64,000 nucleotides of DNA from Jeongeupia wiesaeckerbachi (GCF_050916355.1 NZ_CP136946.1:598162-662161); one strand, 5' to 3'; shown: positions 24,228-37,150, counted from the stretch's first letter. Notes: generated from the letters alone by a model not told the origin. Numbers and translations are program-made.

Positions 24228-25979
24228 ATGCCCATGTTGCGTTTCATCTGGAGCCTGCTCCTGTTGGCCATGCTGTGGGGCCAAGCCGCTCGCGCGCAGG
24301 CCGACTTTCTCCCGCCGGAGCAGGCTTTCCGGCTCAACGTTGTCGAGCTTGGCGACGGTCAGGTCAGGCTGAGCTGGGACATCAGCGACGGTTATTACCT
24401 GTATCGCAAGCACATCAAGATCGAGGGATTACCGGCGGGCAGCGTGCCGGCACCGGTCATGCCGGCTGGCAAGACCATCCACGATGAGTACTTCGGCGAA
24501 TCCGAGGTCTACGTCGACCATCTGACGCTGCAGGTACAGGCGGGGCAGGCGCGGCAATTGCGCATCGGCTGGCAGGGTTGCGCCGAGGCCGGCCTCTGTT
24601 ATCCGCCGCAAACCCGTACCGTGACGCTGCAGGGCGCTGCCGCCACCTCGTCCGGCGCGACGGCGGCGAGTGCGCCAGCAACGCCGGCGCAGGGCGAAGA
24701 TCAGGCCATTTCTGCGCAGCTCGCGCAGGCGGGCACCGTCTGGGTGTTGCTGGTGTTCTTCGGCCTGGGCTTGCTGATGACCTTCACCCCCTGCGTGCTG
24801 CCGATGGTGCCGATTCTCAGCAGCCTGATCGTCGGCAGCGGCGCCACCGCCCGGCGCGGCTTTGTGCTGGCGCTGGCCTTTGTGCTGCCGATGGCGCTGA
24901 GCTACGCGGCAATGGGCGCCGCCGCCGCGATGATGGGCGCGAATCTGCAGGCCATGCTGCAAACACCGTGGGTACTCGGCCTGTTCGCCGCGCTCTTCGT
25001 CCTGCTCGCACTGGCCATGTTTGGCGCGTACGAGCTGCAACTGCCCGCCTTCGTACGCGATCGACTCAATCACGCCCGCCAAGGTCGGCAAGGCGGCACG
25101 CTGGGCGGTGCCGCGGTGATGGGCGTGCTCTCTGCGGTATTGGTAGGCCCCTGCATGACCGCGCCGCTGGCTGGTGCCTTGCTGTACATCGGCGACAGCG
25201 GCGACGTGCTCAAGGGCAGCCTGGCGCTATTGGCCATGGGGCTGGGCATGGGCGTACCACTGCTGCTGGTCGGCACCCTGGGCGCCAGACTGCTGCCGCG
25301 CCCCGGCCCATGGATGACGCGGGTCAAGGCGGTGTTCGGCTTTGTGCTGCTGGCGATGGCGATCTGGTTTGTCGCGCGCATGTTGCCGCCGGTCGCCACG
25401 CTGGCGCTGTGGGGCGTATGGCTGTTTGCCGTCGCCACCGGCGTGCTGGCCATGGGGGAAAGCTGGACAACCGGGAAATGGCCGCTGCGCGGCACCGCAA
25501 TGCTGCTGGCGCTGTGGGCCGTGGCGATGCTGATCGGCGCCGCGGCCGGACAAAGCAACCCATTGCAACCGCTTGCGTTTGTCTCAAGCAGCGCGGCGCC
25601 GGGCCCGTCGATGATGGATGGCTTCACGACCGTCCGCAGCGCCGCCGCCCTGCAACAGGAAATCGACACCGCAGCCGGCCGGGGGCAGTGGACGCTGGTG
25701 GATTACTACGCAGACTGGTGCGTCGCCTGCAAGGACATCGAGCACGCGGTCTTTGGCGACGCCCGGGTGCAGCAGGCGCTGAACGGCATGCGTCTGCTCC
25801 GTCCCGACGTTTCCGCCACCGGCGATGACAGCCAGCAATTGCTCGCCGCTTACCAAGTGCTCGGCCCCCCCACGCTGTTGCTGATCGGCCCGGACGGCAA
25901 GGAGCGCCGCGACTTGCGCGTGGTCGGTGAATTGAGCGCCGACGAATTTCTTGCCCGCCTCAAACAAGCACGGGAGTAA
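24228..25979 (+). CDS. dsbD: Thiol:disulfide interchange protein DsbD (ScsB-like)
   Basis: 583 aa with a signal peptide, an N-terminal periplasmic domain, a central TM domain with conserved Cys residues, and a C-terminal thioredoxin domain (WCVACK). Confidence 0.9.
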   Translation: MPMLRFIWSLLLLAMLWGQAARAQADFLPPEQAFRLNVVELGDGQVRLSWDISDGYYLYRKHIKIEGLPAGSVPAPVMPAGKTIHDEYFGESEVYVDHLTLQVQAGQARQLRIGWQGCAEAGLCYPPQTRTVTLQGAAATSSGATAASAPATPAQGEDQAISAQLAQAGTVWVLLVFFGLGLLMTFTPCVLPMVPILSSLIVGSGATARRGFVLALAFVLPMALSYAAMGAAAAMMGANLQAMLQTPWVLGLFAALFVLLALAMFGAYELQLPAFVRDRLNHARQGRQGGTLGGAAVMGVLSAVLVGPCMTAPLAGALLYIGDSGDVLKGSLALLAMGLGMGVPLLLVGTLGARLLPRPGPWMTRVKAVFGFVLLAMAIWFVARMLPPVATLALWGVWLFAVATGVLAMGESWTTGKWPLRGTAMLLALWAVAMLIGAAAGQSNPLQPLAFVSSSAAPGPSMMDGFTTVRSAAALQQEIDTAAGRGQWTLVDYYADWCVACKDIEHAVFGDARVQQALNGMRLLRPDVSATGDDSQQLLAAYQVLGPPTLLLIGPDGKERRDLRVVGELSADEFLARLKQARE

Positions 25980-25981
25980 GG

Positions 25982-26809
25982 ATGCTGAGTTTCAATCTGG
26001 GCCCCGTGGCAGTTCCCACCGATATCGCGCTACTGGGCGCCGCCTTGCTGGTCGCCCACGCGGCGGGCTTCCTCGCCGGCCGCCGCCAGCGCGTCAGCAT
26101 TGCCAACCATTTGCACGACATGCTGCTGTGGGGCTTGGTGGCCGCGCGGCTGGGGTTTGTCGTGATCTGGTTTGAACAGTACCGGTCACAGCCCTGGAGC
26201 ATGCTGGATCTGCGCGATGGCGGCTTTAGCCTGTGGTCCGGTCTCGGCGGGGCGCTGCTGCTGGCGGCATGGCGCGGCTGGCAACACCCGGCGCTGCGCC
26301 GGCCGCTGGCCTTTGCGCTGCTGGCAGGCGCACTGAGCCTCGGCGCCGGCCAGGCATGGCAGGCCGGCCATGAAGCGCCGGCGCTGTCGACGCAAGCCTT
26401 GAGCACCCTGCCCGGCACCCCCACCACGCTGGCGGCGCTGGCCGAAGGCCGGCCGATGGTCGTCAACCTGTGGGCCAGCTGGTGCCCGCCTTGCCGTCGC
26501 GAGATGCCGCTGCTGCACGCCGCACAGCAGCGAGGCGACGTGCGCTTCGTGTTTGTGAACCAGGGCGAGGCCGCCGCCGCCGTGCAGCAGTATCTGCAAG
26601 CCGAAGGGCTGCAACTGGACAATGTGCTGCTCGACCCGGCCAGCGCGCTCGGACGTGAGTACAAGTCGGTTGCGCTGCCCACCACGCTCTTTTTCGACGC
26701 CCGGGGCCGGCTTGCCGCCACGCATCTGGGCGAGCTGTCCGCCGCCTCGCTCGCCAGCAAGTTGCAAATGCTGCGGACTACGCCACTTTCCAAAGGAAAC
26801 CCACCATGA
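25982..26809 (+). CDS. Membrane-anchored TlpA/ResA-like thiol:disulfide oxidoreductase (ScsD-like)
   Basis: N-terminal TM helices plus a thioredoxin fold with a WCPPC active site. It starts 3 bp after dsbD and overlaps dsbG (ATGA). Confidence 0.75.
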   Translation: MLSFNLGPVAVPTDIALLGAALLVAHAAGFLAGRRQRVSIANHLHDMLLWGLVAARLGFVVIWFEQYRSQPWSMLDLRDGGFSLWSGLGGALLLAAWRGWQHPALRRPLAFALLAGALSLGAGQAWQAGHEAPALSTQALSTLPGTPTTLAALAEGRPMVVNLWASWCPPCRREMPLLHAAQQRGDVRFVFVNQGEAAAAVQQYLQAEGLQLDNVLLDPASALGREYKSVALPTTLFFDARGRLAATHLGELSAASLASKLQMLRTTPLSKGNPP

Positions 26810-27579
26810 ACCTGACGCAAACGTCGAAAAGAATCTTGTTGTCTTCGCTGCTCGCCCTGCCCCTGAGCCTGCACGCATTCGCCGAACCGGCCAAATCATG
26901 GCCAGCGCCGATCAAGGCACTGGAGAAGCAGGGTTACGAGATTCTTGGCAGCTTCAAGGCACCGGATGGCATGACCGGCTATACCGCGATGCTGCTGACC
27001 CGGCCGCAAACCATCTATCTGACACCGGGTGGCGACAAGGCGATCGTCGGCACCATGATCGACGCCAACGGCGACAACTGGAACCAGCAGCTGCTGGACA
27101 AGCAATTCAGCACCGCGCTGTGGCAGCAACTGGAGCACAGCGCCTGGGTAGCGGATGGCGACAGCAAGGCCCCCCGGGTGATCTATGCCTTTACCGATCC
27201 GAACTGCCCGTACTGCAGCAAGTTCTGGAATGATGCCCGCCCCTGGGTCAAGGCCGGCAAGGTACAGATTCGCCATATCCTGGTCGGCATCATCAAGGCC
27301 GACAGCACGGGCAAGGCCGCCGCCATCCTGGCGGACGCCAACCCGTCGGCAGCGCTGAACCGCCATGAACTTCAGCACGCCAGCGGCGGCGTCAAACCGC
27401 TCTCGAAGATTCCGCAACCGATCCAGGACAAGCTGAGCATCAACCAAAAGTTGATGGAGCGCTTTGGCGCGTTTGCTACCCCGACCATCCTGTATCGCGA
27501 TGCCAGCGGGACCATGCAAAGAATGCAAGGCGCCCCCTCGTCGGCCGCCAAGCTCAAAGAGGTCATGGAGGGCAAGTGA
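26806..27579 (+). CDS. dsbG: Thiol:disulfide interchange protein DsbG/DsbC family (ScsC-like)
   Basis: Signal peptide, an N-terminal dimerization domain and a thioredoxin domain with a CPYC active site (FTDPNCPYCSKFW). Confidence 0.8.
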   Translation: MNLTQTSKRILLSSLLALPLSLHAFAEPAKSWPAPIKALEKQGYEILGSFKAPDGMTGYTAMLLTRPQTIYLTPGGDKAIVGTMIDANGDNWNQQLLDKQFSTALWQQLEHSAWVADGDSKAPRVIYAFTDPNCPYCSKFWNDARPWVKAGKVQIRHILVGIIKADSTGKAAAILADANPSAALNRHELQHASGGVKPLSKIPQPIQDKLSINQKLMERFGAFATPTILYRDASGTMQRMQGAPSSAAKLKEVMEGK

Positions 27580-27835: not shown

Positions 27836-28882
27836 CTAGGAAGTGGAGCGCACGCGTACTTGCGCCATCGTCGCAGTCAGTTGCTCAGTCTCGATGTCCA
27901 CCGGCAAGAACTTTTCGATCACCGCAACATTGGTGTGCAGGTGAGATGAAGCATGGCTTGTCGTGAAAGCGCCTCCGCCGGCGAGGACCAGCGGCAAGAG
28001 CAACTGATCTGCAAGGTGTTCGCCGACTGCCGCGTCGCTTTTCAAATAGCTTCTGGCTTGACGTACGACGTCGTCGGCAACCGATTCGGCTGAAACACCC
28101 TTTTCACCAAAACCAGTAAACACCTCGGTAATCTCGCCTCGCACAACCTCAATGAGCAGCACGTTGCCCGGCCCTTCCGAGCTCGGCAATACGCGAAGCT
28201 GCCCATCCACATCAGCCATCTGGGTGTTGATCCGCTCCAGCTCGCGCTTGGCGACGCTGGCCGGCACGCCTGCGACCAAGGCTTCGGCACGCAGGCGCGC
28301 CTCGCCCCCGCGTGTGGTCAGGTCGATCGGCTGCAACACCGCACACGGCTCGACCTTAGCCAAAACCTGACCGCCTCCAGCCGGGTAAAAGCCGTGGCGC
28401 AGCAGTTCAATCGATTGCTTGACCCCCATGCGGTGCAGCAGCGGCTGCCACGCCCGGATCAGAAAATCGGCCGGCGGCGCCGCGTGGTTATGCGTGCCAC
28501 CGGTCACCAGGACCGAACTCGGCACATCGGCAGACCACAACGCCGGCAGCACCGTCTGCAGCACCAGTGTGCAGCTGCCGGCGCTACCAATGGCGAACTG
28601 GTAGTCGCCACCGCGAATCGGCCCCGGCGCGAAGCTCAGGGTTTGCGAACCGAGCCCGGCGCCCTGAACCTTGGCGCCCGAGATCGCCGTGGCAGCCTGC
28701 ACGGCGGTCAGGTGCTGACGCAGCAGCCCGGGCTTGCTGCGTTTGGCGCGGATACTTTCGATCCGGAACGGCAAGCCGGTGATCATCGACAGCGTCAGCG
28801 CGGTGCGCAGCACCTGGCCGCCCCCCTCGCCTTCCGCACCATCCAATTCGATCCACGCTTGTTTGAAATCCTGACTTTTCAT
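27836..28882 (-). CDS. rtcA: RNA 3'-terminal phosphate cyclase
   Basis: Starts at MKSQDFKQAWIELDGAEGEGGGQVLRTALTLS.... Conserved RtcA motifs include the His-containing region (...TSHASSHLHTN). Confidence 0.9.
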   Translation of the reverse strand: MKSQDFKQAWIELDGAEGEGGGQVLRTALTLSMITGLPFRIESIRAKRSKPGLLRQHLTAVQAATAISGAKVQGAGLGSQTLSFAPGPIRGGDYQFAIGSAGSCTLVLQTVLPALWSADVPSSVLVTGGTHNHAAPPADFLIRAWQPLLHRMGVKQSIELLRHGFYPAGGGQVLAKVEPCAVLQPIDLTTRGGEARLRAEALVAGVPASVAKRELERINTQMADVDGQLRVLPSSEGPGNVLLIEVVRGEITEVFTGFGEKGVSAESVADDVVRQARSYLKSDAAVGEHLADQLLLPLVLAGGGAFTTSHASSHLHTNVAVIEKFLPVDIETEQLTATMAQVRVRSTS

Positions 28883-28924
28883 TTTTTGCTCTTTACAAGA
28901 CAAGCGGCCGACATGGCCGGAGGT

Positions 28925-29746
28925 CTAAGTGGAATGCTTAGGCAAGAACGCCCCAACCTGGCCAATGGCATCGAGCAGAAGACGATCGAGTGCAGTGGCG
29001 TCCCCTGTCGGTTTCTTGAAATCGCTCGGAGGCTTTTCAGCCGCCAGCGTCCGCTCGATAAATGCATGGATCAGTGGGAAGCGCGCACCGTGCTCCGCCT
29101 CACCGGCGGCCATCTTGACGGCCAGCAGCGCATTGATCTCCTCGCGCAGTGCCGGCTCAAGCACCATCGCATCGGCAAGATCGGCGAAACGCATCGGCGG
29201 CATGCCGTTGCCGGCATCGATCCATTGCGCGGCCAGTAGCGGACGCAGCACATACAAATACTTTTTCAGCCGCACCGTCTCGCCTTGCAGGTATCCACGG
29301 AAATTCTTCTTCGCCATCGCCAGGTAGTGCCACCGCCCCTTTCGTTCGGATAAGAAGGCCGACTTCAAGGTGCGCAGTTGCTCGCCAACGCCAGCATCCT
29401 CGCGATAGATCACCGGCGAATCGAGCCATTCGAACAGCGTCGGGTTGGAACGCCGCATCAACTGCAGTGCCTTGCGCAACTCCCAGCCGCATACGTCGAG
29501 TTCGTCGCTGATCGGCACTTCGATCACATCACGCTGCGGTTCGACCCGCAGATACCAGTCGAGCTTGTGCACATAGAGAAAGCGCACGTCATAGTCGCTG
29601 TCGGGCGAGGCAAAGCCCCAGCCCCGACTGCCGGACTCACAGGCAAACAGCACGCGCACATCGTGACGCGCTTCGATGGCCGTCAACTCATCCATCACAC
29701 GTTCCCGCATCAGCGGCTCGATCGGGTGGGCACTCAGAATCTTCAT
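28925..29746 (-). CDS. Pol-beta superfamily nucleotidyltransferase associated with RNA ligase (RlaP-like)
   Basis: 274 aa from MKILSAHPIEP (GGAG RBS). Nucleotidyltransferase motif FACESGSRGWGFASPDSDYDVRFLY (GS...D.D). Located between rtcB and rtcA. Confidence 0.65.
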   Translation of the reverse strand: MKILSAHPIEPLMRERVMDELTAIEARHDVRVLFACESGSRGWGFASPDSDYDVRFLYVHKLDWYLRVEPQRDVIEVPISDELDVCGWELRKALQLMRRSNPTLFEWLDSPVIYREDAGVGEQLRTLKSAFLSERKGRWHYLAMAKKNFRGYLQGETVRLKKYLYVLRPLLAAQWIDAGNGMPPMRFADLADAMVLEPALREEINALLAVKMAAGEAEHGARFPLIHAFIERTLAAEKPPSDFKKPTGDATALDRLLLDAIGQVGAFLPKHST

Positions 29747-29814
29747 TTCCGTTCTCCGCCGGTATCCAGACCGGTCTTGTCTCACTCCGGGCGGGGCCCT
29801 TGCCCCTCCCCGGA

Positions 29815-31025
<1,211 letters not shown>

Positions 31026-31029
<4 letters not shown>

Positions 31030-31391
31030 TGCTTGATGTCCTTGATGGTTCCCGCCAGTGCCCGGCGCCGCTGCTGGCGGCAGCCGAGGCAACGCACGGC
31101 GGTTGAATACACATAGCCCTTGGCGGTTTCGTACCACCATTGCTGTTGTTCTGCTGTCCAGATCTGCTTCGCACCGCAATCGCGGCAGGCGAAGGCCAGA
31201 TCCTCGTAGTAGCCGCGTTCGACGAATGCCGGTGCGCCGTAGCTGTTGTTCGGCGCCAGCCGCGCCACATTGACCTGCCGTGCGCCCTTGGGCCGGACTA
31301 CTGCGGCCGGTACAAGCTGTGTCACGGCTTCCCGTCGTGCCTTGCGCCGCGCCATGAGGGCGGCCCGTTTCTGTTTACCGCTTTGCATCAT
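31026..31391 (-). CDS. Cys-rich zinc-ribbon protein (121 aa), translationally coupled to rtcB
   Basis: Start MMQSGKQKR with an AGGAG RBS. Basic N-terminus and two CxxC pairs (CRDCGAKQ...CLGCRQQ). Its stop overlaps the rtcB start. Confidence 0.5.
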
Positions 31392-31432
31392 GCCTCTCCT
31401 GGCACCCGGCGGGATCATCCCGCCGGGCGATG

Positions 31433-32569
31433 CTAGGTTTTCAAGCTCACCAGCCCGTTCAGCAACTGGTCGAAGCCGCCGATTACCGAAATCTTGTCGA
31501 TCCGCTCGGCCAGCCGCTCCAGCGTTTCCAGCTCCTTGAGCCGCAGCGCCGTCGGGTTGTCTTCCATCACCTTGGCCGTGTTGAGCAGCGAGCGGGTGGC
31601 CCCGGTTTCCTCGCGTCGGCGGATCACATTGGCTTGCGCCGCTTTTTCCGCCTCGACCACTTGCGCCAGCAGTGCCTTCATTTCGCCCGGCAACACGATG
31701 TCTTTCACGCCGAGGCTCGCCACACGCACGCCGAAGCCGTTTAGCCGCGCGGTCATGTGCAGGCTCACGACGTCATCAATCACCTGCTTGTTCTCCAGCA
31801 GCTCGTCGAGCGTGCGGGTGCCGACGGCGGCGCGCAGGCCGAACTGCAACTCGCGGTAGATATGCTCCATCGGCTTGGCTAGGCGCGAGAACGCCAGTGC
31901 CACGTCGTCGAACAGCCAGTTGGCGGCGAGGTTGACGCGCAGGCTCACCTTGTCGCGTGTGAGGATCTCCTGCCCGGTGATCTCGACCGTTTGCAAGCGG
32001 GTATCAACCAGATCGACCGCGATATCGCGGTTGAACCGCCAGTAGGCGTAGCGCCCCGGTTGCAGCAGCGCAACGCGCTGACCGTCGATCCGCAATAGGC
32101 CGACCAGGCCGTCCTGCACTTGTACGTTCAATATCGCGTTGAGTCCGATGATGGCTTTGCCGCGCAAGGCCGGCTGGGCAATTCGCGCCAGCAGTGCCTC
32201 AGGCACGGCCCAGCCCGCAGCAAGGTCGATCCGCTCGAAACGCTGCGCTACCGCGTCCCGCCAATACATGCGGCGCGAGCCCGGCGCGACGATCTCGACC
32301 AGAACCTCGTTCTCGAAGCGCAGTCCGGCCTCGTTGTCGCCAAGGTCGAACAGCGCAAAGTGCGACGCCACGACCTCCGGTTCGTACTGGCGCAGGTATT
32401 CGGCCAGCGGGTGTTCGAACAGCGCTTCGTCCAGCGGATAGGCCACGACGGCGTAGTCGCGCTTCAGGCTGGTTTTCAGGTAGCGGCCCGGCTGCAATAC
32501 GGCGGTGAAATCGCCGTTGCACAGCAGCAGGGCGCGTTCATTCTTGCGTACCAGAAATCGTTGCCACAT
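31433..32569 (-). CDS. Cytoplasmic SPFH/band-7 (slipin-like) protein with a degenerate N-terminal SPFH-like duplication; first gene of the rtc operon
   Basis: 378 aa from MWQRFLV... with no TM helix. The C-terminal half is a canonical SPFH domain (...TRDKVSLRVNLAANW...VASLGVKDIVLPGEMKALLAQVVEAEKAAQANVIRRREETGA). The N-terminal half repeats an LQPGRY motif. Confidence 0.65.
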   Translation of the reverse strand: MWQRFLVRKNERALLLCNGDFTAVLQPGRYLKTSLKRDYAVVAYPLDEALFEHPLAEYLRQYEPEVVASHFALFDLGDNEAGLRFENEVLVEIVAPGSRRMYWRDAVAQRFERIDLAAGWAVPEALLARIAQPALRGKAIIGLNAILNVQVQDGLVGLLRIDGQRVALLQPGRYAYWRFNRDIAVDLVDTRLQTVEITGQEILTRDKVSLRVNLAANWLFDDVALAFSRLAKPMEHIYRELQFGLRAAVGTRTLDELLENKQVIDDVVSLHMTARLNGFGVRVASLGVKDIVLPGEMKALLAQVVEAEKAAQANVIRRREETGATRSLLNTAKVMEDNPTALRLKELETLERLAERIDKISVIGGFDQLLNGLVSLKT

Positions 32570-32793
32570 CTCTCTTTTCCTTTTTATTGGCCGGTTGTCG
32601 TCGATCCGGACAGGGGGCCGCATGGCCATCCAGGGGGCCGTCGCACCAGGGCGCTGTCGTGCGCAACCTTGATGGCCGGTTGCTCATTCAGCGCGCCTCG
32701 CACTCGGGCTGCCTGGGGGCGATACCACCCCCGGGCCGGATCGACGGCGGCATTGCCGCGCCGGGTACTGCGTTTTGCAAAGTCCCTTTCGGG

Positions 32794-32860
32794 GTTTCGA
32801 GCGGGAGTCGAACCCGCGACACACGGTGTTGAACCGTTGCTCTACCCATTGAGCTATCGA
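32794..32860 (-). ncRNA. tRNA-like element B in the rtc leader: canonical D-arm and T-arm with a non-canonical anticodon arm
   Basis: Minus-strand read: UCGAUA-GCUC-AAUGGGUA-GAGC-A-ACGGU-UCAAC-ACCGU-GUGU-GCGGG-UUCGACU-CCCGC-UCGAAAC. The D-stem/loop contains GG and the T-arm is a perfect 5 bp plus UUCGACU loop. The anticodon loop is only 5 nt and the acceptor pairing is weak, so this is not a true tRNA. Confidence 0.5.
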
Positions 32861-32906
32861 TGGCGGCGATCCGGGAATCGAACCCGGCGGGCACCAAGCA
32901 TCGCCA
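32861..32906 (-). ncRNA. tRNA-like element A in the rtc leader: acceptor-stem/T-arm minihelix ending in an encoded CCA
   Basis: Minus-strand read: UGGCGAU-gcuuggugcccg-CCGGG-UUCGAUU-CCCGG-AUCGCCG-CCA. A perfect T-arm with 7-bp acceptor pairing (one U-G) and a 3' CCA. Confidence 0.5.
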
Positions 32907-33017
32907 ATGACTGCGCTTCCACACGGCGGTACATGCACTGCCCAACGGGCGACATGCCGGCGCGGCTTGAGAACCGCTCACCCCAGGGCCGTGCTTTCCT
33001 GCAGTCCAGGGTTACAC

Positions 33018-33033
33018 AGCGAAAGTCGTGCCA
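33018..33033 (-). promoter_or_regulatory. Putative sigma-54 (-24/-12) promoter of the rtc operon
   Basis: Minus-strand TGGCAC-gactt-TCGCT, with GG and GC 12 nt apart. It lies divergent from rtcR, which encodes the sigma-54 activator of this locus. Confidence 0.5.
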
Positions 33034-33172
33034 GACAAATCGAAGCACCCAATATGTTCGATAACTTGTTGTTTTTACATGAATATTGTTTTTATCACCT
33101 GCAGTTCGTTCTCACGGCTATTCATAAAAATACGATATAGTTGGATCGTCATTTATCTATTGCTATCGCATC

Positions 33173-34789
33173 ATGAAGCGTGTCGTCGTTTTCGGTTTCG
33201 TCGGTACGGTGCTCGACTATGTCGGCAAGGGTGGGCAGCGCTGGGAGAAGTGGCGGCCTACCGTCGGGCTGTGTCAGCAGGAAGACCTGATCGTCGACCG
33301 GATCGAGCTGCTGCATGACAGTCGCAGCCGGGGGCTGTTCGAGCGCTTGAAGCGGGACATCGAGACTGTCTCTCCCGGGACCGAGGTGGTCAGCGTCGAG
33401 GTCAACCTGCGCGACCCGTGGGATTTCGAGGAGGTTTACGCCGCGCTGCACGACTTCGCCCGCGGCTATGCCTTCGACACCGAGGCCGAGGATTACCTGA
33501 TCCACATCACCACCGGCACCCACGTCGCCCAGATCTGCTGGTTCCTGCTCGCCGAGGCCCGCTACCTGCCGGCCAGGCTGGTGCAGACGTCGCCACCACG
33601 CAGGCGCGAGGGCGAAGGCGTCGCCGGCAGTTACGCGCTGATCGATCTCGACCTGTCGCGCTACAACAAGATCGCCACGCGTTTCGCGCGCGAGCAGGCC
33701 GAGACGGTGTCCTTCCTCAAGTCCGGCATTGCCACGCGCAACGCGCGCTTCAACCGGATGATCGAGCAGATCGAGCGGGTCGCCATGCGCTCAAAGGCGC
33801 CGATGCTGCTGTGCGGCCCGACCGGCGCCGGCAAGTCCTTTCTGGCGAGACGGATCTACGAACTGAAAAAAGCCCGCCACCAGCTGGCCGGCCGCTTTGT
33901 CGAGGTGAACTGCGCGACCTTGCGCGGCGATAGCGCGATGTCGGCATTGTTCGGCCATGTGAAGGGGGCGTTTACCGGAGCCCAGACCGAGCGGGCCGGT
34001 TTGCTGCGCAGCGCCGACGGCGGCTTGTTGTTCCTCGATGAAATCGGCGAACTGGGCCTGGACGAGCAGGCGATGCTGCTCAAGGCGATCGAAGAAAAGC
34101 GTTTCTTCCCGTTCGGCAGCGATCGCGAAACCGACAGCAATTTTCAATTGATTGCCGGTACGGTGCGCGACCTGAAGCAATGGGTGGCCGAAGGCAGGTT
34201 CCGCGAAGACTTGTACGCCCGGATCAACTTGTGGACCTACGAGCTACCGGGCCTGGCGGAGCGCGCCGAAGATCTCGAACCGAACCTTGAATTCGAACTG
34301 GCCCGCTTCGCCAGCGAGCACGGTGAACAGGTCCGCTTCAATGCCGAAGCCAGGCGGGCCTATCTCAAGTTTGCCACCTCAAGCGAAGCCAGGTGGGCCG
34401 GCAATTTCCGCGAACTCTCGGCGTCGGTCACGCGGCTGGCAACGCTGGCAGACGCGGGCCGAATTACCAACGACAACGTCGACGAAGAGATCGGTCGCCT
34501 GCGTCAGGCGTGGCGCAACGGCGATACCAGCGAGCTGACCGACCTGCTGGGGGAAAAGAGCGGACTGCTCGACCTGTTTGACCGCCTGCAGCTGGAAAAC
34601 GTGATCGAGGTCTGCAAACAATCCAGCTCCCTATCCGATGCCGGCCGACGCTTGTTCGGGATGTCGCGGCAAGAAAAAGCCAAGGCCAACGACGCAGACC
34701 GGTTGAGGAAATATCTGGCCAGATATGAATTGAGCTGGCAGCAGATTCAGGACATCCCCGAGCCATCCCGCGGCACGGGAAAACCTTGA
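33173..34789 (+). CDS. rtcR: Sigma-54-dependent transcriptional regulator RtcR (CARF-like N-terminal domain, AAA+ domain, HTH)
   Basis: 538 aa with an AAA+ sigma-54 activator core ([33 protein letters not shown]) and a long N-terminal RtcR-type sensor domain. Divergent from rtcB/rtcA. Confidence 0.9.
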
Positions 34790-34925: not shown

Positions 34926-36014
34926 TTAGCCGTTGCGCAGCAGATCGCCCATCACCGTCTGTTCGCCGCGCTTGCGCGCGGCCGACGGCGCGTCGTACAG
35001 CAGCAGCCAGCGACGCGGCCCGGCCCAGCCGGCCGGCAGTGCGCACAGCGCCTCGGCGCGGTCCTCGCCGACGCCATAGGGCAGCGCCAGCTGCTCGACC
35101 GCGGCGTCCCACCACATCGCGGCGGCCTCGTCGTCGGGTACCGCAGCGAGCGCCTGCGCGGCACCGGTCCAGCGGAACACGCGGACCGCACCATCGAGCA
35201 CCATGGTCGGGCCGGCGAGGATCAGCAGATCGTCGCCATCCATGTGCAGGTCGCGAACGCCCAGACCGGCCAATCGCAGGAAATGCTTGCGGTAGTGCGC
35301 GCCGCCCTTGCCCAGTGGCCGCAGCCGCAGCTTGCCCTTGCGGGTTTCGACCGCGATTTCGAGCACGCACGACCAGCCACGCAGCACCGGCCCGCGCAGG
35401 CCGAGCAACAACCGGTCGCCGTGCAGCGCCAGCCCTTCGATATCGAGACCGTTGTCCTTGCCCGGAATCGCCAGGAACGGCGCCAGTTGTGCGTCGTCGG
35501 CCAGCAGTTCGGTCAGTTCGTTGCGGCGCGGGCCGCCCTTGAGCACCGCGGCGCTACGGCCGTCCGGCGCTTCGCGCACCAGCATCGGCAGGCCGTCGGC
35601 GCCGTCCACCAGCGGAATGCGCGCCAGCAGGCAGCGGTTGCCGTCATGGCTCAAGGTCGCCAGCCGCGCGAGATTGTCGTCGCGGCCGGGCTTGGGGTTC
35701 TTGCGTTTGAGCCCGTGCGAGCCGACCAGCCACAGATAGCCGTCGGCGCAGGCCAGCCCTTCGATATCGGCCTCGATGTCGGCGGCGGCCGGCAGGTCGA
35801 GGTAGTCGGCCAGCGGGAAATGCTGCGCCTCGCCAAACCGCAGCACTTCGCCGTCGACCGGATCGAGCCGGCGCAGCCGGTCGAGCCCGCAGGCCTCGTC
35901 GCCGGCGACCCACAGCGCATCACCGCTGACGCAGGCGCCCGACAGGTTGTCATGGACCAGTTGCTCGCCGTCGAGCTCGAGCCGCACGGCGTGTTGCTGC
36001 AGATGACGGGGCAT
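34926..36014 (-). CDS. Hypothetical protein (362 aa; possibly DUF3616-like), downstream of the Spo0M-like gene
   Basis: Long ORF with good coding character, 9 bp after the Spo0M-like gene. No catalytic motif recognised. Confidence 0.45.
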   Translation of the reverse strand: MPRHLQQHAVRLELDGEQLVHDNLSGACVSGDALWVAGDEACGLDRLRRLDPVDGEVLRFGEAQHFPLADYLDLPAAADIEADIEGLACADGYLWLVGSHGLKRKNPKPGRDDNLARLATLSHDGNRCLLARIPLVDGADGLPMLVREAPDGRSAAVLKGGPRRNELTELLADDAQLAPFLAIPGKDNGLDIEGLALHGDRLLLGLRGPVLRGWSCVLEIAVETRKGKLRLRPLGKGGAHYRKHFLRLAGLGVRDLHMDGDDLLILAGPTMVLDGAVRVFRWTGAAQALAAVPDDEAAAMWWDAAVEQLALPYGVGEDRAEALCALPAGWAGPRRWLLLYDAPSAARKRGEQTVMGDLLRNG

Positions 36015-36023
36015 GGCGTCTCC

Positions 36024-36761
36024 TCAGTAGAACAGCGGCGCGAACTGGCGCTGCACGGCGTCGACCGACAGCCCGGCGTGCGGCACGCTGACGACGCGGT
36101 AGCTGTCGCCACGGAAGCGCCGGTCGACTTCGACCAGCACATGCGTCACCGTCGGGCCTGGCAGGAAGGACAGCTCGACTTCGGCAATGCCGCCGCGCCC
36201 GGACGGGCGGAATTCGAGTTCCTGATAGCAGCCGCTCTGGCTGTTGCCGACCTGGGTGCGCAGGTAGCCGGCTTCGACGTCGGCGCGCGCCAGCACGAAG
36301 CCGAGCCGCTCCATCGCGGTGATCACTGCCTGCATCGGCTCGGTCGGCTCGACCACCAGCGGATCGCGATCGGACGCGTCGACGGCGCTGGCGATCGACA
36401 AGCGCGTCTCGAGCCAGACGCGGCAGCGGTTGTCGCGGCAACGCAGCGCGTTGATCGGCGTCTCGGCGGGCAGTTGCGTATTCAGCGGAATCGACATCGT
36501 CTCGCCGGCGCGCAGCACGAAGCGCTCGTTCAACGGCCAGTGCGCCAGCACGTGGCTGGTGGTGTACTCGCCATTGTCGCTCTCGACTTCCATTTCGGTG
36601 CACAGCGCCAGTTGCAGCCCGTCGATCGTCTGATCGGCCGCGCCGCCTTTGAGCACCACCTCGCCATCCAAGGGCCCGCCCGGGATCAGCCGCGACGTCG
36701 TAATACGGGTATCAACCTGGGCGCCACCGAAACCGGCAGCCGCGAGCAAGGAACGGAACAT
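36024..36761 (-). CDS. Spo0M-like protein (sporulation-control protein family homologue)
   Basis: 245 aa from MFRSLLAAAGFGGAQVDTRITTSRLIPGGPLDGEVVLKGG (AGGAG RBS). The N-terminal pattern matches the Spo0M family. Confidence 0.6.
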   Translation of the reverse strand: MFRSLLAAAGFGGAQVDTRITTSRLIPGGPLDGEVVLKGGAADQTIDGLQLALCTEMEVESDNGEYTTSHVLAHWPLNERFVLRAGETMSIPLNTQLPAETPINALRCRDNRCRVWLETRLSIASAVDASDRDPLVVEPTEPMQAVITAMERLGFVLARADVEAGYLRTQVGNSQSGCYQELEFRPSGRGGIAEVELSFLPGPTVTHVLVEVDRRFRGDSYRVVSVPHAGLSVDAVQRQFAPLFY

Positions 36762-37150
36762 GAGTACTCCTGAAAAGGGATGAACGACGCGGGACATCGG
36801 CGCTGCGGTAAGCCGCTGGCAGCCTTCACGTGACCGCGTGCGAAACCAACCGGATGCTTTCCTCGGCTTGAAGCGAGGCGCATGCAAAACCGTCATTGCC
36901 GCCCGACTGCAGCTATCGACCACGCCGGATAGCGTCGGTTCCTTGAATGAATCGCAGCCTTCCCAAGCTGCAAGCATCCGGCAGAATCCGCGGGCAACCC
37001 ACGCGAGCGCCGCACGGCCTGTCGCCCTTTCCGGCACCGGCCTACGCCGGTCTTTTCCATGCTGCCGATCCCCGGCATCATCGACCCCGTCGCAGCCGGC
37101 ACGCCATCGTCCGCTACGATACCGTCGAACCGATCGAGAGAACGAACCGC

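Follow-up and report, generated by a model that had tools for sequence, protein, structure and literature searches.

Genes and promoter of the operon

A 64,000-nucleotide (nt) stretch of DNA from the beta-proteobacterium Jeongeupia wiesaeckerbachi, referred to here as the window, carries an rtc RNA-repair operon and its divergent regulator gene at positions 27836-34789. The operon joins the gene for the RNA ligase RtcB to a gene for an SPFH (Band-7) protein, and its transcript would open with a long folded leader RNA that contains two tRNA mimics. An earlier reading of the window (the original prediction) had treated the leader region (32570-33017) as plain intergenic DNA. It is there that a conserved, folded leader with a tRNA-like element was found.

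The identities of the genes come from a list of open reading frames (ORFs) and from Pfam and NCBIfam scans, which bore out rtcR and each of the five minus-strand operon genes as originally named. The rtcR gene (33173-34789, plus strand) is divergent from the operon and encodes a CARF-domain, sigma-54-dependent activator. RtcR matches PF06956 with 290.7 bits, PF00158 (Sigma54_activat) with 168 bits, the NF038308 equivalog with 854 bits (cut-off 650), and the PADLOC RtcR model with 893 bits; it is the sole match in the locus to PADLOC and the defence-system libraries. The first gene of the operon (31433-32569, minus strand, as are all that follow) encodes the SPFH/Band-7 protein of 378 amino acids (aa), which matches PF01145 (89.5 bits) in its C-terminal half only. 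It is followed by a gene (31026-31391) for a 121-aa basic treble-clef zinc protein (PF13451, zf_Tbcl, 48.6 bits; cut-off 24) and by rtcB, rlaP, and rtcA. RtcB (29815-31029; 404 aa; PF01139, 433 bits) is a 3'-phosphate/5'-OH RNA ligase, RlaP (28925-29746; 273 aa; PF10127, 325.8 bits along the entire model) is a Pol-beta-type RNA 3'-nucleotidyltransferase, and RtcA (27836-28882; 348 aa; PF01137, 261 bits, plus PF05189; NF003246 equivalog, 469 bits) is an RNA 3'-terminal phosphate cyclase. In other words, the set of ligase, nucleotidyltransferase, and end-modifying enzyme is complete, and all three proteins score far over the Pfam cut-offs. No NCBIfam model was found for the SPFH, zinc, or RlaP protein. 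An Rsr gene and a DinB-like gene had been reported absent, and neither of these nor a TROVE domain appeared among the five operon ORFs in the Pfam scan, the rest of the window not having been exhaustively scanned.

The intergenic gaps from the SPFH gene through the zinc-protein gene, rtcB, and rlaP to rtcA are 41, -4, 68, and 42 nt. Inside the operon, sites resembling promoters or terminators occur no more often than in shuffles. The sigma-54 (-24/-12) promoter that had been proposed ahead of the operon is predicted at 33033-33018 (minus strand), where it can be read directly as TGGCACGACTTTCGCT with GG at -24 and GC at -12. How widely is this arrangement kept? A pattern scan with one genome per species found the SPFH subfamily in at least 594 species genomes, so that the label "non-canonical" first given to the operon was an overstatement. 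The locus counts in this text rest on the best 80 SPFH loci, which come from beta- and gamma-proteobacteria and encode proteins of 57-83% identity. The promoter motif TGGCACG-N4-TCGCW recurs 450-580 nt upstream of the SPFH start codon, and upstream of the leader RNA, in ~50 orthologous RtcR-bearing loci. It is missing from loci without RtcR.

A conserved and covarying leader RNA

The 464 nt from the promoter to the start of the SPFH gene form a conserved, covarying RNA. Its parts, all on the minus strand, are from 5' to 3' domain I, mimic 1, mimic 2, hairpin 3, and domain III. The fold was obtained with RNAalifold from an alignment of 21 full beta-proteobacterial leaders. The consensus has 83 pairs, and compensatory change is seen in 51. 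Cells of the alignment were paired in 94.7% of cases, compared to 84.0% in column shuffles (none of 500 reached the observed value) and 36-49% with slid partners. Likewise, the covariation score was 0.394 compared to 0.06-0.11 in the slid controls. The Shine-Dalgarno sequence of the SPFH gene is not sequestered in the consensus fold. The minimum-free-energy fold of the window leader alone (z = -3.45) breaks the cloverleaf and was left out of the model.

Mimic 2 (32860-32797) is a cloverleaf of the b7a-tRNA type (for band-7-associated tRNA), and it matches positions 4-67 of the Rfam tRNA model with 42.8 bits (cut-off 29). It has a 4-base-pair (bp) acceptor stem, a canonical D-arm and T-arm, a 5-nt anticodon loop, and no 3' CCA. 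Of its 22 RNAalifold pairs, 14 show compensatory change, and the anticodon stem is among the covarying helices. The D-loop and T-loop are invariant among relatives, whereas the anticodon loop is by lineage either a 7-nt loop with assorted "anticodons" or a GNRA or UUCG tetraloop. Because tetraloops replace the anticodon loop while the D-loop and T-loop stay invariant, the comparison of sequences indicates that selection is on tRNA shape and not on decoding. ARAGORN found no tRNA in the window, and the anticodons that it gave to the element in relatives were inconsistent or impossible. Two candidate identities of mimic 2 were rejected. A genuine tRNA gene was ruled out by the 4-bp acceptor stem, the 5-nt loop, the lack of CCA, and the ARAGORN result. 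Membership of the YrlA/Ro class was ruled out by a score of 23.3 bits against RF02553 (gathering threshold 69) and by the lack of rsr among the five operon ORFs. The closed acceptor hairpin of YrlA is also not conserved here.

Mimic 1 (32906-32861) lies immediately 5' of mimic 2, with no nucleotide between the two, and has the appearance of a mini-tRNA. It consists of a 7-bp acceptor-like stem (32906-32900/32870-32864), a T-arm (32887-32871), and an encoded CCA (32863-32861). A short hairpin takes the place of the D and anticodon arms, and the T-arm is canonical and covarying. The acceptor stem was perfect (7/7) in 16 of 39 loci, where 2.9 were expected, and it occurred in 35 distinct sequences. 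The CCA was present in 27 of the 39 loci, compared to ~4% by chance. In Pseudomonas the position of mimic 1 is held by a full cloverleaf, giving two full cloverleaves in many loci.

The mimics are embedded in further structure. Domain I (32982-32931), which corresponds to RNAalifold helices 2 and 3, comprises two hairpins (32982-32959 and 32957-32931), and 13 of its 17 pairs changed on both sides among the 21 leaders. Its conserved motifs GCCGGUGC...AUGCCGCC are also present in Pseudomonas. Downstream of mimic 2 is hairpin 3 (32794-32784), which reads CCC-GAAA-GGG in the window. In most relatives it has 5-6 bp and a 7-nt anticodon-like or GNRA loop, with a covarying stem at a conserved position (alignments A2, A4, and A7). 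Domain III (32762-32590) is an interrupted stem of ~170 nt and ~35 bp, with a core (32746-32726/32619-32599) and a side hairpin (32759-32747). It represents helices 10-14 of the beta-proteobacterial RNAalifold consensus. An independently made alignment of 20 Pseudomonas loci yielded the same architecture, with 93.4% of cells paired compared to 79.7% and a covariation score of 0.426 compared to 0.03-0.09. An ungapped-duplex statistic over all loci was not discriminating on domain III, as shuffles of this GC-rich sequence often equalled its score, and alignment covariation was used instead. Domains I and III had no Rfam family match, even at E up to 10.

The SPFH protein

The SPFH protein of the window is 100% identical to a protein of Jeongeupia wiesaeckerbachi annotated as "slipin family protein" and 65% identical to the Pseudomonas aeruginosa orthologue (PA4582/PaFlo8). 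Its closest relatives in sequence and fold are stomatin, HflK/C, QmcA, prohibitin, and erlin. SPFH proteins assemble into rings or cages whose subunits number from 16 to over 24. The protein has no hydrophobic segment, its best 19-residue Kyte-Doolittle mean being 1.28, and the earlier view that it lacks a transmembrane anchor thus holds.

In the AlphaFold model, with a predicted local distance difference test (pLDDT) score of 81.5, residues 1-145 form two five-stranded beta units, followed by an SPFH domain and a pair of long C-terminal helices. An N-terminal SPFH-like duplication had been suggested. The duplication has a counterpart in the two beta units, which are modelled with a pLDDT of 87; its SPFH-like character is only weakly borne out. 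With a separate high-confidence model of residues 1-145, the matches were to SPFH proteins, in their beta part only, and had low Z. The full-length model gave Foldseek matches suggestive of the major vault protein (MVP), whereas residues 1-145 alone did not retrieve MVP. Furthermore, there was no sequence-level match between the SPFH protein and MVP and no match to the Vault-repeat Pfam family. The number of N-terminal beta units varies among homologues, whose lengths range from 378 to 591 aa. A fusion to the zinc protein was ruled out as the cause of the greater length of the 511-591-aa homologues, which have added N-terminal beta units instead.

The two ends of the protein are conserved to very different degrees. 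A C-terminal stretch of ~80 residues is near-invariant in the homologues. At residues ~295-372 (window ~31450-31685, minus strand) beta- and gamma-proteobacteria keep the pattern NVIRRREET..ATRSLLNTAKVME.NPTALRLKELETLE..AERID.ISV.GG.DQ almost without change, while the N-terminal units are only ~45% identical across the same comparison. Because this helical segment is so unusually constrained, its conservation suggests that the protein has a conserved binding partner.

A phage origin of the subfamily was considered and ruled out, as only one contig among 2.9 million in a viral collection encoded a member. That contig (IMGVR_UViG_2667528155_000005, locus L087) carries a protein of 56% identity.

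Gene neighbourhood of the SPFH and zinc proteins

The proposed association between the SPFH gene and rtcB is supported by the gene neighbourhood. RtcB is encoded within 1.5 kilobases downstream of SPFH in 60 of the 66 loci with enough flanking sequence. RtcR is divergent in 58 of 73 loci, and RlaP and RtcA are present in 35 and 30 of 61 loci, respectively. In 73 of 80 loci, some of them without RtcR, a tRNA mimic is found upstream of the SPFH gene. In an SPFH-less operon of Ralstonia, the leader is only ~90 nt and has no tRNA-like match. Since the mimic is kept in loci without RtcR and is missing from the SPFH-less Ralstonia operon, the distribution of sequences ties the leader RNA to SPFH and not to RtcR or RtcB.

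The zinc protein behaves differently. It has a pI of 10.4 and a Shine-Dalgarno sequence GGAGAGG, and its stop codon overlaps the ATG of rtcB, just as the original prediction described; the overlap reads ATGA. Four cysteines (C69, C72, C101, and C104, in a CxxC...CxxC arrangement), which belong to a domain of ~48 residues, are invariant in 15 homologues, in which a WTAEQQQWWYE motif is also present. It was originally placed in one complex with the SPFH protein and the ligase. The loci do not show it as a fixed partner of SPFH, because the zinc protein is present in only 22 of 80 SPFH loci (in 21 of them it comes right behind SPFH, in the other one behind RtcB) and also occurs in an operon without SPFH. 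Most loci that lack it have a gap of only 50-130 nt between SPFH and rtcB. The SPFH-less operon is that of Ralstonia solanacearum, in which RtcR is divergent from genes in the order zinc protein, RtcB, RlaP, and RtcA, with an identical stop/start overlap. Because Ralstonia has the zinc protein and RtcB without SPFH, the zinc protein, as judged from gene content, travels with RtcB and not with the SPFH module. More distant PF13451 proteins sit in unrelated contexts. The zinc protein is an optional, RtcB-linked accessory and probably serves the ligase as an RNA-binding cofactor.

Some of the loci hold additional genes. A second RtcB paralogue is encoded beyond rtcR, on the rtcR strand, in two of them (L042:2425-3639 and L054:3209-4375). 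In Undibacterium flavidum (L026:8188-8700), the SPFH and rtcB genes are separated by one for a PNKP-type HAD phosphatase (PF25109, 97 bits), another RNA-end-healing module. Three loci (L069:8124-9236, L074:7998-9218, and L043:8129-9202) encode a ClpP-like SDH-type serine protease (PF01972, 37.7 bits) directly after SPFH, in the first two between SPFH and rtcB, which recalls SPFH-NfeD pairs. Comamonadaceae/Sphaerotilaceae-type loci without RtcR and the sigma-54 promoter have arrays of up to 14 canonical tRNA genes upstream of SPFH. These arrays (L037, L052, L069, L072, L074, L077, L060, L055, and L043) lie upstream of position ~7000, mostly just upstream of the mimic. Such loci could be "spare tRNA plus repair" islands.

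Relation to known systems

The operon very probably belongs to a class of RtcB loci with Band-7 (SPFH) and b7a-tRNA. This class was already predicted by comparative genomics in 2016. Burroughs and Aravind reported for certain bacteria that RtcB has as neighbours a Band-7 protein and an RNA predicted as a "band-7-associated tRNA", as relayed in 10.1101/312249. The same source states that the b7a-tRNA is occasionally swapped with Rsr/YrlA, calls the RNA experimentally unvalidated, and proposes that Band-7/b7a-tRNA is functionally redundant with Rsr/YrlA (10.1101/312249). In P. aeruginosa, PA4582 is the first gene of the rtcB operon and was induced 3.2-fold by H2O2. In its abstract, the 2016 paper reportedly puts forward SPFH/Band-7 modules and "a novel tRNA-like molecule" as cofactors with a putative scaffolding role. 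The claim that the roles of the SPFH and zinc proteins are undescribed therefore went too far for the SPFH protein, because a publication of 2016 already presented its link to RtcB together with a tRNA-like partner, and PA4582/PaFlo8 is known in an rtc operon. PaFlo8 is described as "embedded within the rtc locus", and its subfamily as having a patchy distribution that suggests horizontal transfer (PMC13086221). No description was found of the link between the zinc protein and RtcB, of the mini-tRNA with an encoded CCA, or of domains I and III, with the 2016 account represented by what citing papers report of it. Thus, the extended leader RNA may be new.

The Pseudomonas locus is the nearest relative for comparison. 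It shares the gene order, the regulator, the tRNA-like element upstream of SPFH, and the position of RlaP between rtcB and rtcA. It differs in that the window has the treble-clef zinc protein, as do 22 of 80 loci, and in the number of cloverleaves: one, next to a mini-tRNA, in the window and two full ones in many Pseudomonas. Published accounts of the class, in the parts that are available, mention only the tRNA-like RNA, whereas domains I and III and the encoded CCA are seen here. RlaP of two pseudomonads adds one or two nucleoside monophosphates to RNA 3'-OH ends in vitro (PMC12776372).

The rsr-yrlB-yrlA-rtcB-rtcA operon of Salmonella has the same type of regulator, the same promoter class, and a scaffold-type protein and tRNA mimic ahead of rtcB. 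YrlA, too, keeps the D/T elbow and cannot decode. However, the window operon has no Rsr/TROVE gene among its five ORFs, and with 23.3 bits its leader stays far below the 69 that the YrlA model requires. Furthermore, in YrlA the tRNA is circularly permuted and its acceptor stem closed, whereas the order of the tRNA parts is normal here and a CCA-bearing mini-tRNA accompanies them. The rtcBA operon of E. coli shares RtcR, the sigma-54 promoter, RtcB, and RtcA, but lacks SPFH, the zinc protein, RlaP, and the long structured leader. Finally, the SPFH protein resembles stomatin, HflK-HflC, and QmcA-NfeD in having an SPFH domain followed by coiled-coil helices. It differs from these membrane complexes in that it has no membrane anchor, that no NfeD or FtsH partner is present at the locus, and that its partners in the genome are an RNA and the enzymes of RNA repair.

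A scaffold model for RNA repair and its alternatives

What is the function of an SPFH protein and a tRNA-like leader in an RNA-repair operon? The reading favoured here, which is fairly probable when taken as a whole, is that of an RNA-repair operon controlled by RtcR and sigma-54 that belongs to the Band-7 and tRNA-like RNA class and works by a scaffold mechanism. In Salmonella, RtcR is activated by damaged tRNA, namely by fragments ending in a 2',3'-cyclic phosphate (PMC7790460). By extension from Salmonella, RtcR would sense damaged RNA and fire the sigma-54 promoter. The transcript would open with a folded non-coding RNA of ~440 nt, which is possibly excised. The soluble, stomatin-like SPFH protein would oligomerise in the cytoplasm and bind the leader RNA to form a ribonucleoprotein scaffold, by analogy to Ro, which binds YrlA of the enterobacterial rsr-yrlBA-rtcBA operon, and to the complex of MVP, vault RNA, and TEP1. 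Such a scaffold would concentrate broken tRNA-shaped substrates and present them to RtcB for ligation, to RlaP for 3'-end addition, and to RtcA for end cyclisation. The zinc protein would act apart from the SPFH module, as an RtcB-linked cofactor that binds RNA. The scaffold mechanism itself, with a Ro/Y-RNA-like ribonucleoprotein serving RtcB, is possible by this analogy but stops short of being probable. The larger RNA-repair complex that was originally envisaged is reasonable, because SPFH is tied to rtcB and the operon has one sigma-54 promoter and no internal terminator above chance.

Several observations speak against the scaffold model. RNA binding by the SPFH protein, its oligomerisation in the cytoplasm, and its contact with RtcB are drawn from analogy. 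To our knowledge, all characterised SPFH proteins act at membranes, and the sequence of this one would permit a peripheral membrane association. No terminator or processing signal exceeded chance between the leader RNA and the SPFH coding region, so that the RNA could act purely in cis. Three Pseudomonas species (L005, L009, and L061) keep the sigma-54 promoter, domains I and III, hairpin 3, and SPFH-RtcB-RlaP, but in them both cloverleaves are replaced by unrelated hairpins (~300-400 nt upstream of the SPFH ATG). Because these species lost both cloverleaves, the tRNA shape is not always required. Finally, deletion of paFlo8 had no effect on growth, motility, biofilm, peroxide tolerance, or virulence, RNA damage not being among the conditions (PMC13086221).

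A bolder form of the model holds that the whole ~440-nt leader is a single undescribed non-coding RNA that is released and becomes a subunit of a soluble SPFH cage. The product would be a vault-like RNA-repair ribonucleoprotein, and the b7a-tRNA would be only the most recognisable piece of its RNA. The encoded CCA of mimic 1 could then be a handle for RlaP, for a CCA-adding enzyme, or for aminoacylation-type recognition. The protein is built from beta units, an SPFH domain, and a long helix and in this recalls a shorter form of MVP, which in the eukaryotic vault has an SPFH-like shoulder and is accompanied by vault RNA and the TROVE-bearing TEP1. In both systems, an SPFH-type cage protein would go together with a small structured RNA. 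However, there was no match to MVP in sequence or to the Vault repeat in Pfam, and the likeness may be just the common SPFH core. This bolder form of the model is rather doubtful. If a cytoplasmic, RNA-containing SPFH cage did exist, bacteria would have their first soluble SPFH assembly, which would also be a plausible relative of the vault. If it did not, the operon would be another copy of a known accessory module; the locus itself is ordinary for its class.

The main alternative is that the leader acts in cis, while the SPFH protein acts separately. Its tRNA-like modules could be sites for processing by RNase P, Z, or E, through which the downstream mRNA is matured and stabilised, or decoys or competitive inhibitors of tRNA-directed nucleases, and domains I and III could tune translation or stability. 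The RNA does lie between a promoter and a start codon with no terminator of its own. The encoded CCA borders on the 5' end of mimic 2, an arrangement also seen in tandem tRNA precursors that RNase P cuts, and YrlA of Mycobacterium smegmatis is an RNase P substrate (10.1101/312249). YrlA has also been suggested to be a competitive inhibitor of an anticodon nuclease (PMC7790460), and in Comamonadaceae-type loci the mimic trails arrays of real tRNAs. On the other hand, the RNA co-occurs with SPFH rather than with RtcR or RtcB and is absent from the SPFH-less Ralstonia operon. Tetraloops in place of anticodon loops argue against a decoy for an anticodon nuclease. The Shine-Dalgarno sequence is unsequestered in the consensus fold, and ~250 nt of extra covarying structure exceed what a processing site needs. 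A purely cis-acting leader is unlikely.

It has also to be considered that the SPFH protein is a peripheral scaffold at the inner membrane that binds no RNA. It would either place RtcB where tRNase toxins such as colicins and contact-dependent inhibition (CDI) toxins enter or regulate a protease in the manner of HflK/C or QmcA-NfeD. That stomatin, HflK/C, QmcA, prohibitin, and erlin, its closest relatives in sequence and fold, are membrane proteins is consistent with this idea, as is the ClpP-like SDH protease gene directly after SPFH in several Comamonadaceae-type loci. However, the protein of the window has no hydrophobic segment, two soluble beta units replace the membrane hairpin of stomatin, and the window operon has no protease gene. 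The strict coupling of SPFH to a tRNA-like RNA would also be left unexplained, and a membrane role of this kind is improbable. As for incidental insertion of the SPFH and zinc genes into an ordinary rtcBA operon, it could draw on the paFlo8 deletion without phenotype in standard assays, on the lack of the zinc protein in 58 of 80 loci, and on the patchy, seemingly horizontally transferred SPFH subfamily, but it is contradicted by a gene order of SPFH then RtcB in 60 of 66 loci at only 57-83% identity, by the single sigma-54 promoter for all genes, and by the translational coupling between the zinc protein and rtcB, which is seen in the window and in Ralstonia alike, and can practically be dismissed.

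The scaffold model can be stated in more concrete terms than before. The locus and its ~600 orthologues map the RNA partner of the SPFH protein as two tRNA mimics and two further covarying domains, expressed from an RtcR-controlled promoter. This map turns a vague notion of a scaffold into constructs that can be tested, and it bears on the role of Ro/Y-RNA-type and SPFH-type cofactors for RtcB.

Genes flanking the locus

The next genes downstream of rtcR (34926-37037, minus strand) are convergent with it. One encodes a DUF3616 protein (PF12275, 395 bits) and the other a Spo0M-like protein (PF07070, 219 bits). Downstream of rtcA and also convergent is a disulfide-bond cluster (24228-27579, plus strand), with a DsbD-like membrane protein, a thioredoxin-like protein, and a DsbG/DsbC-like one, recognised from their translations only.

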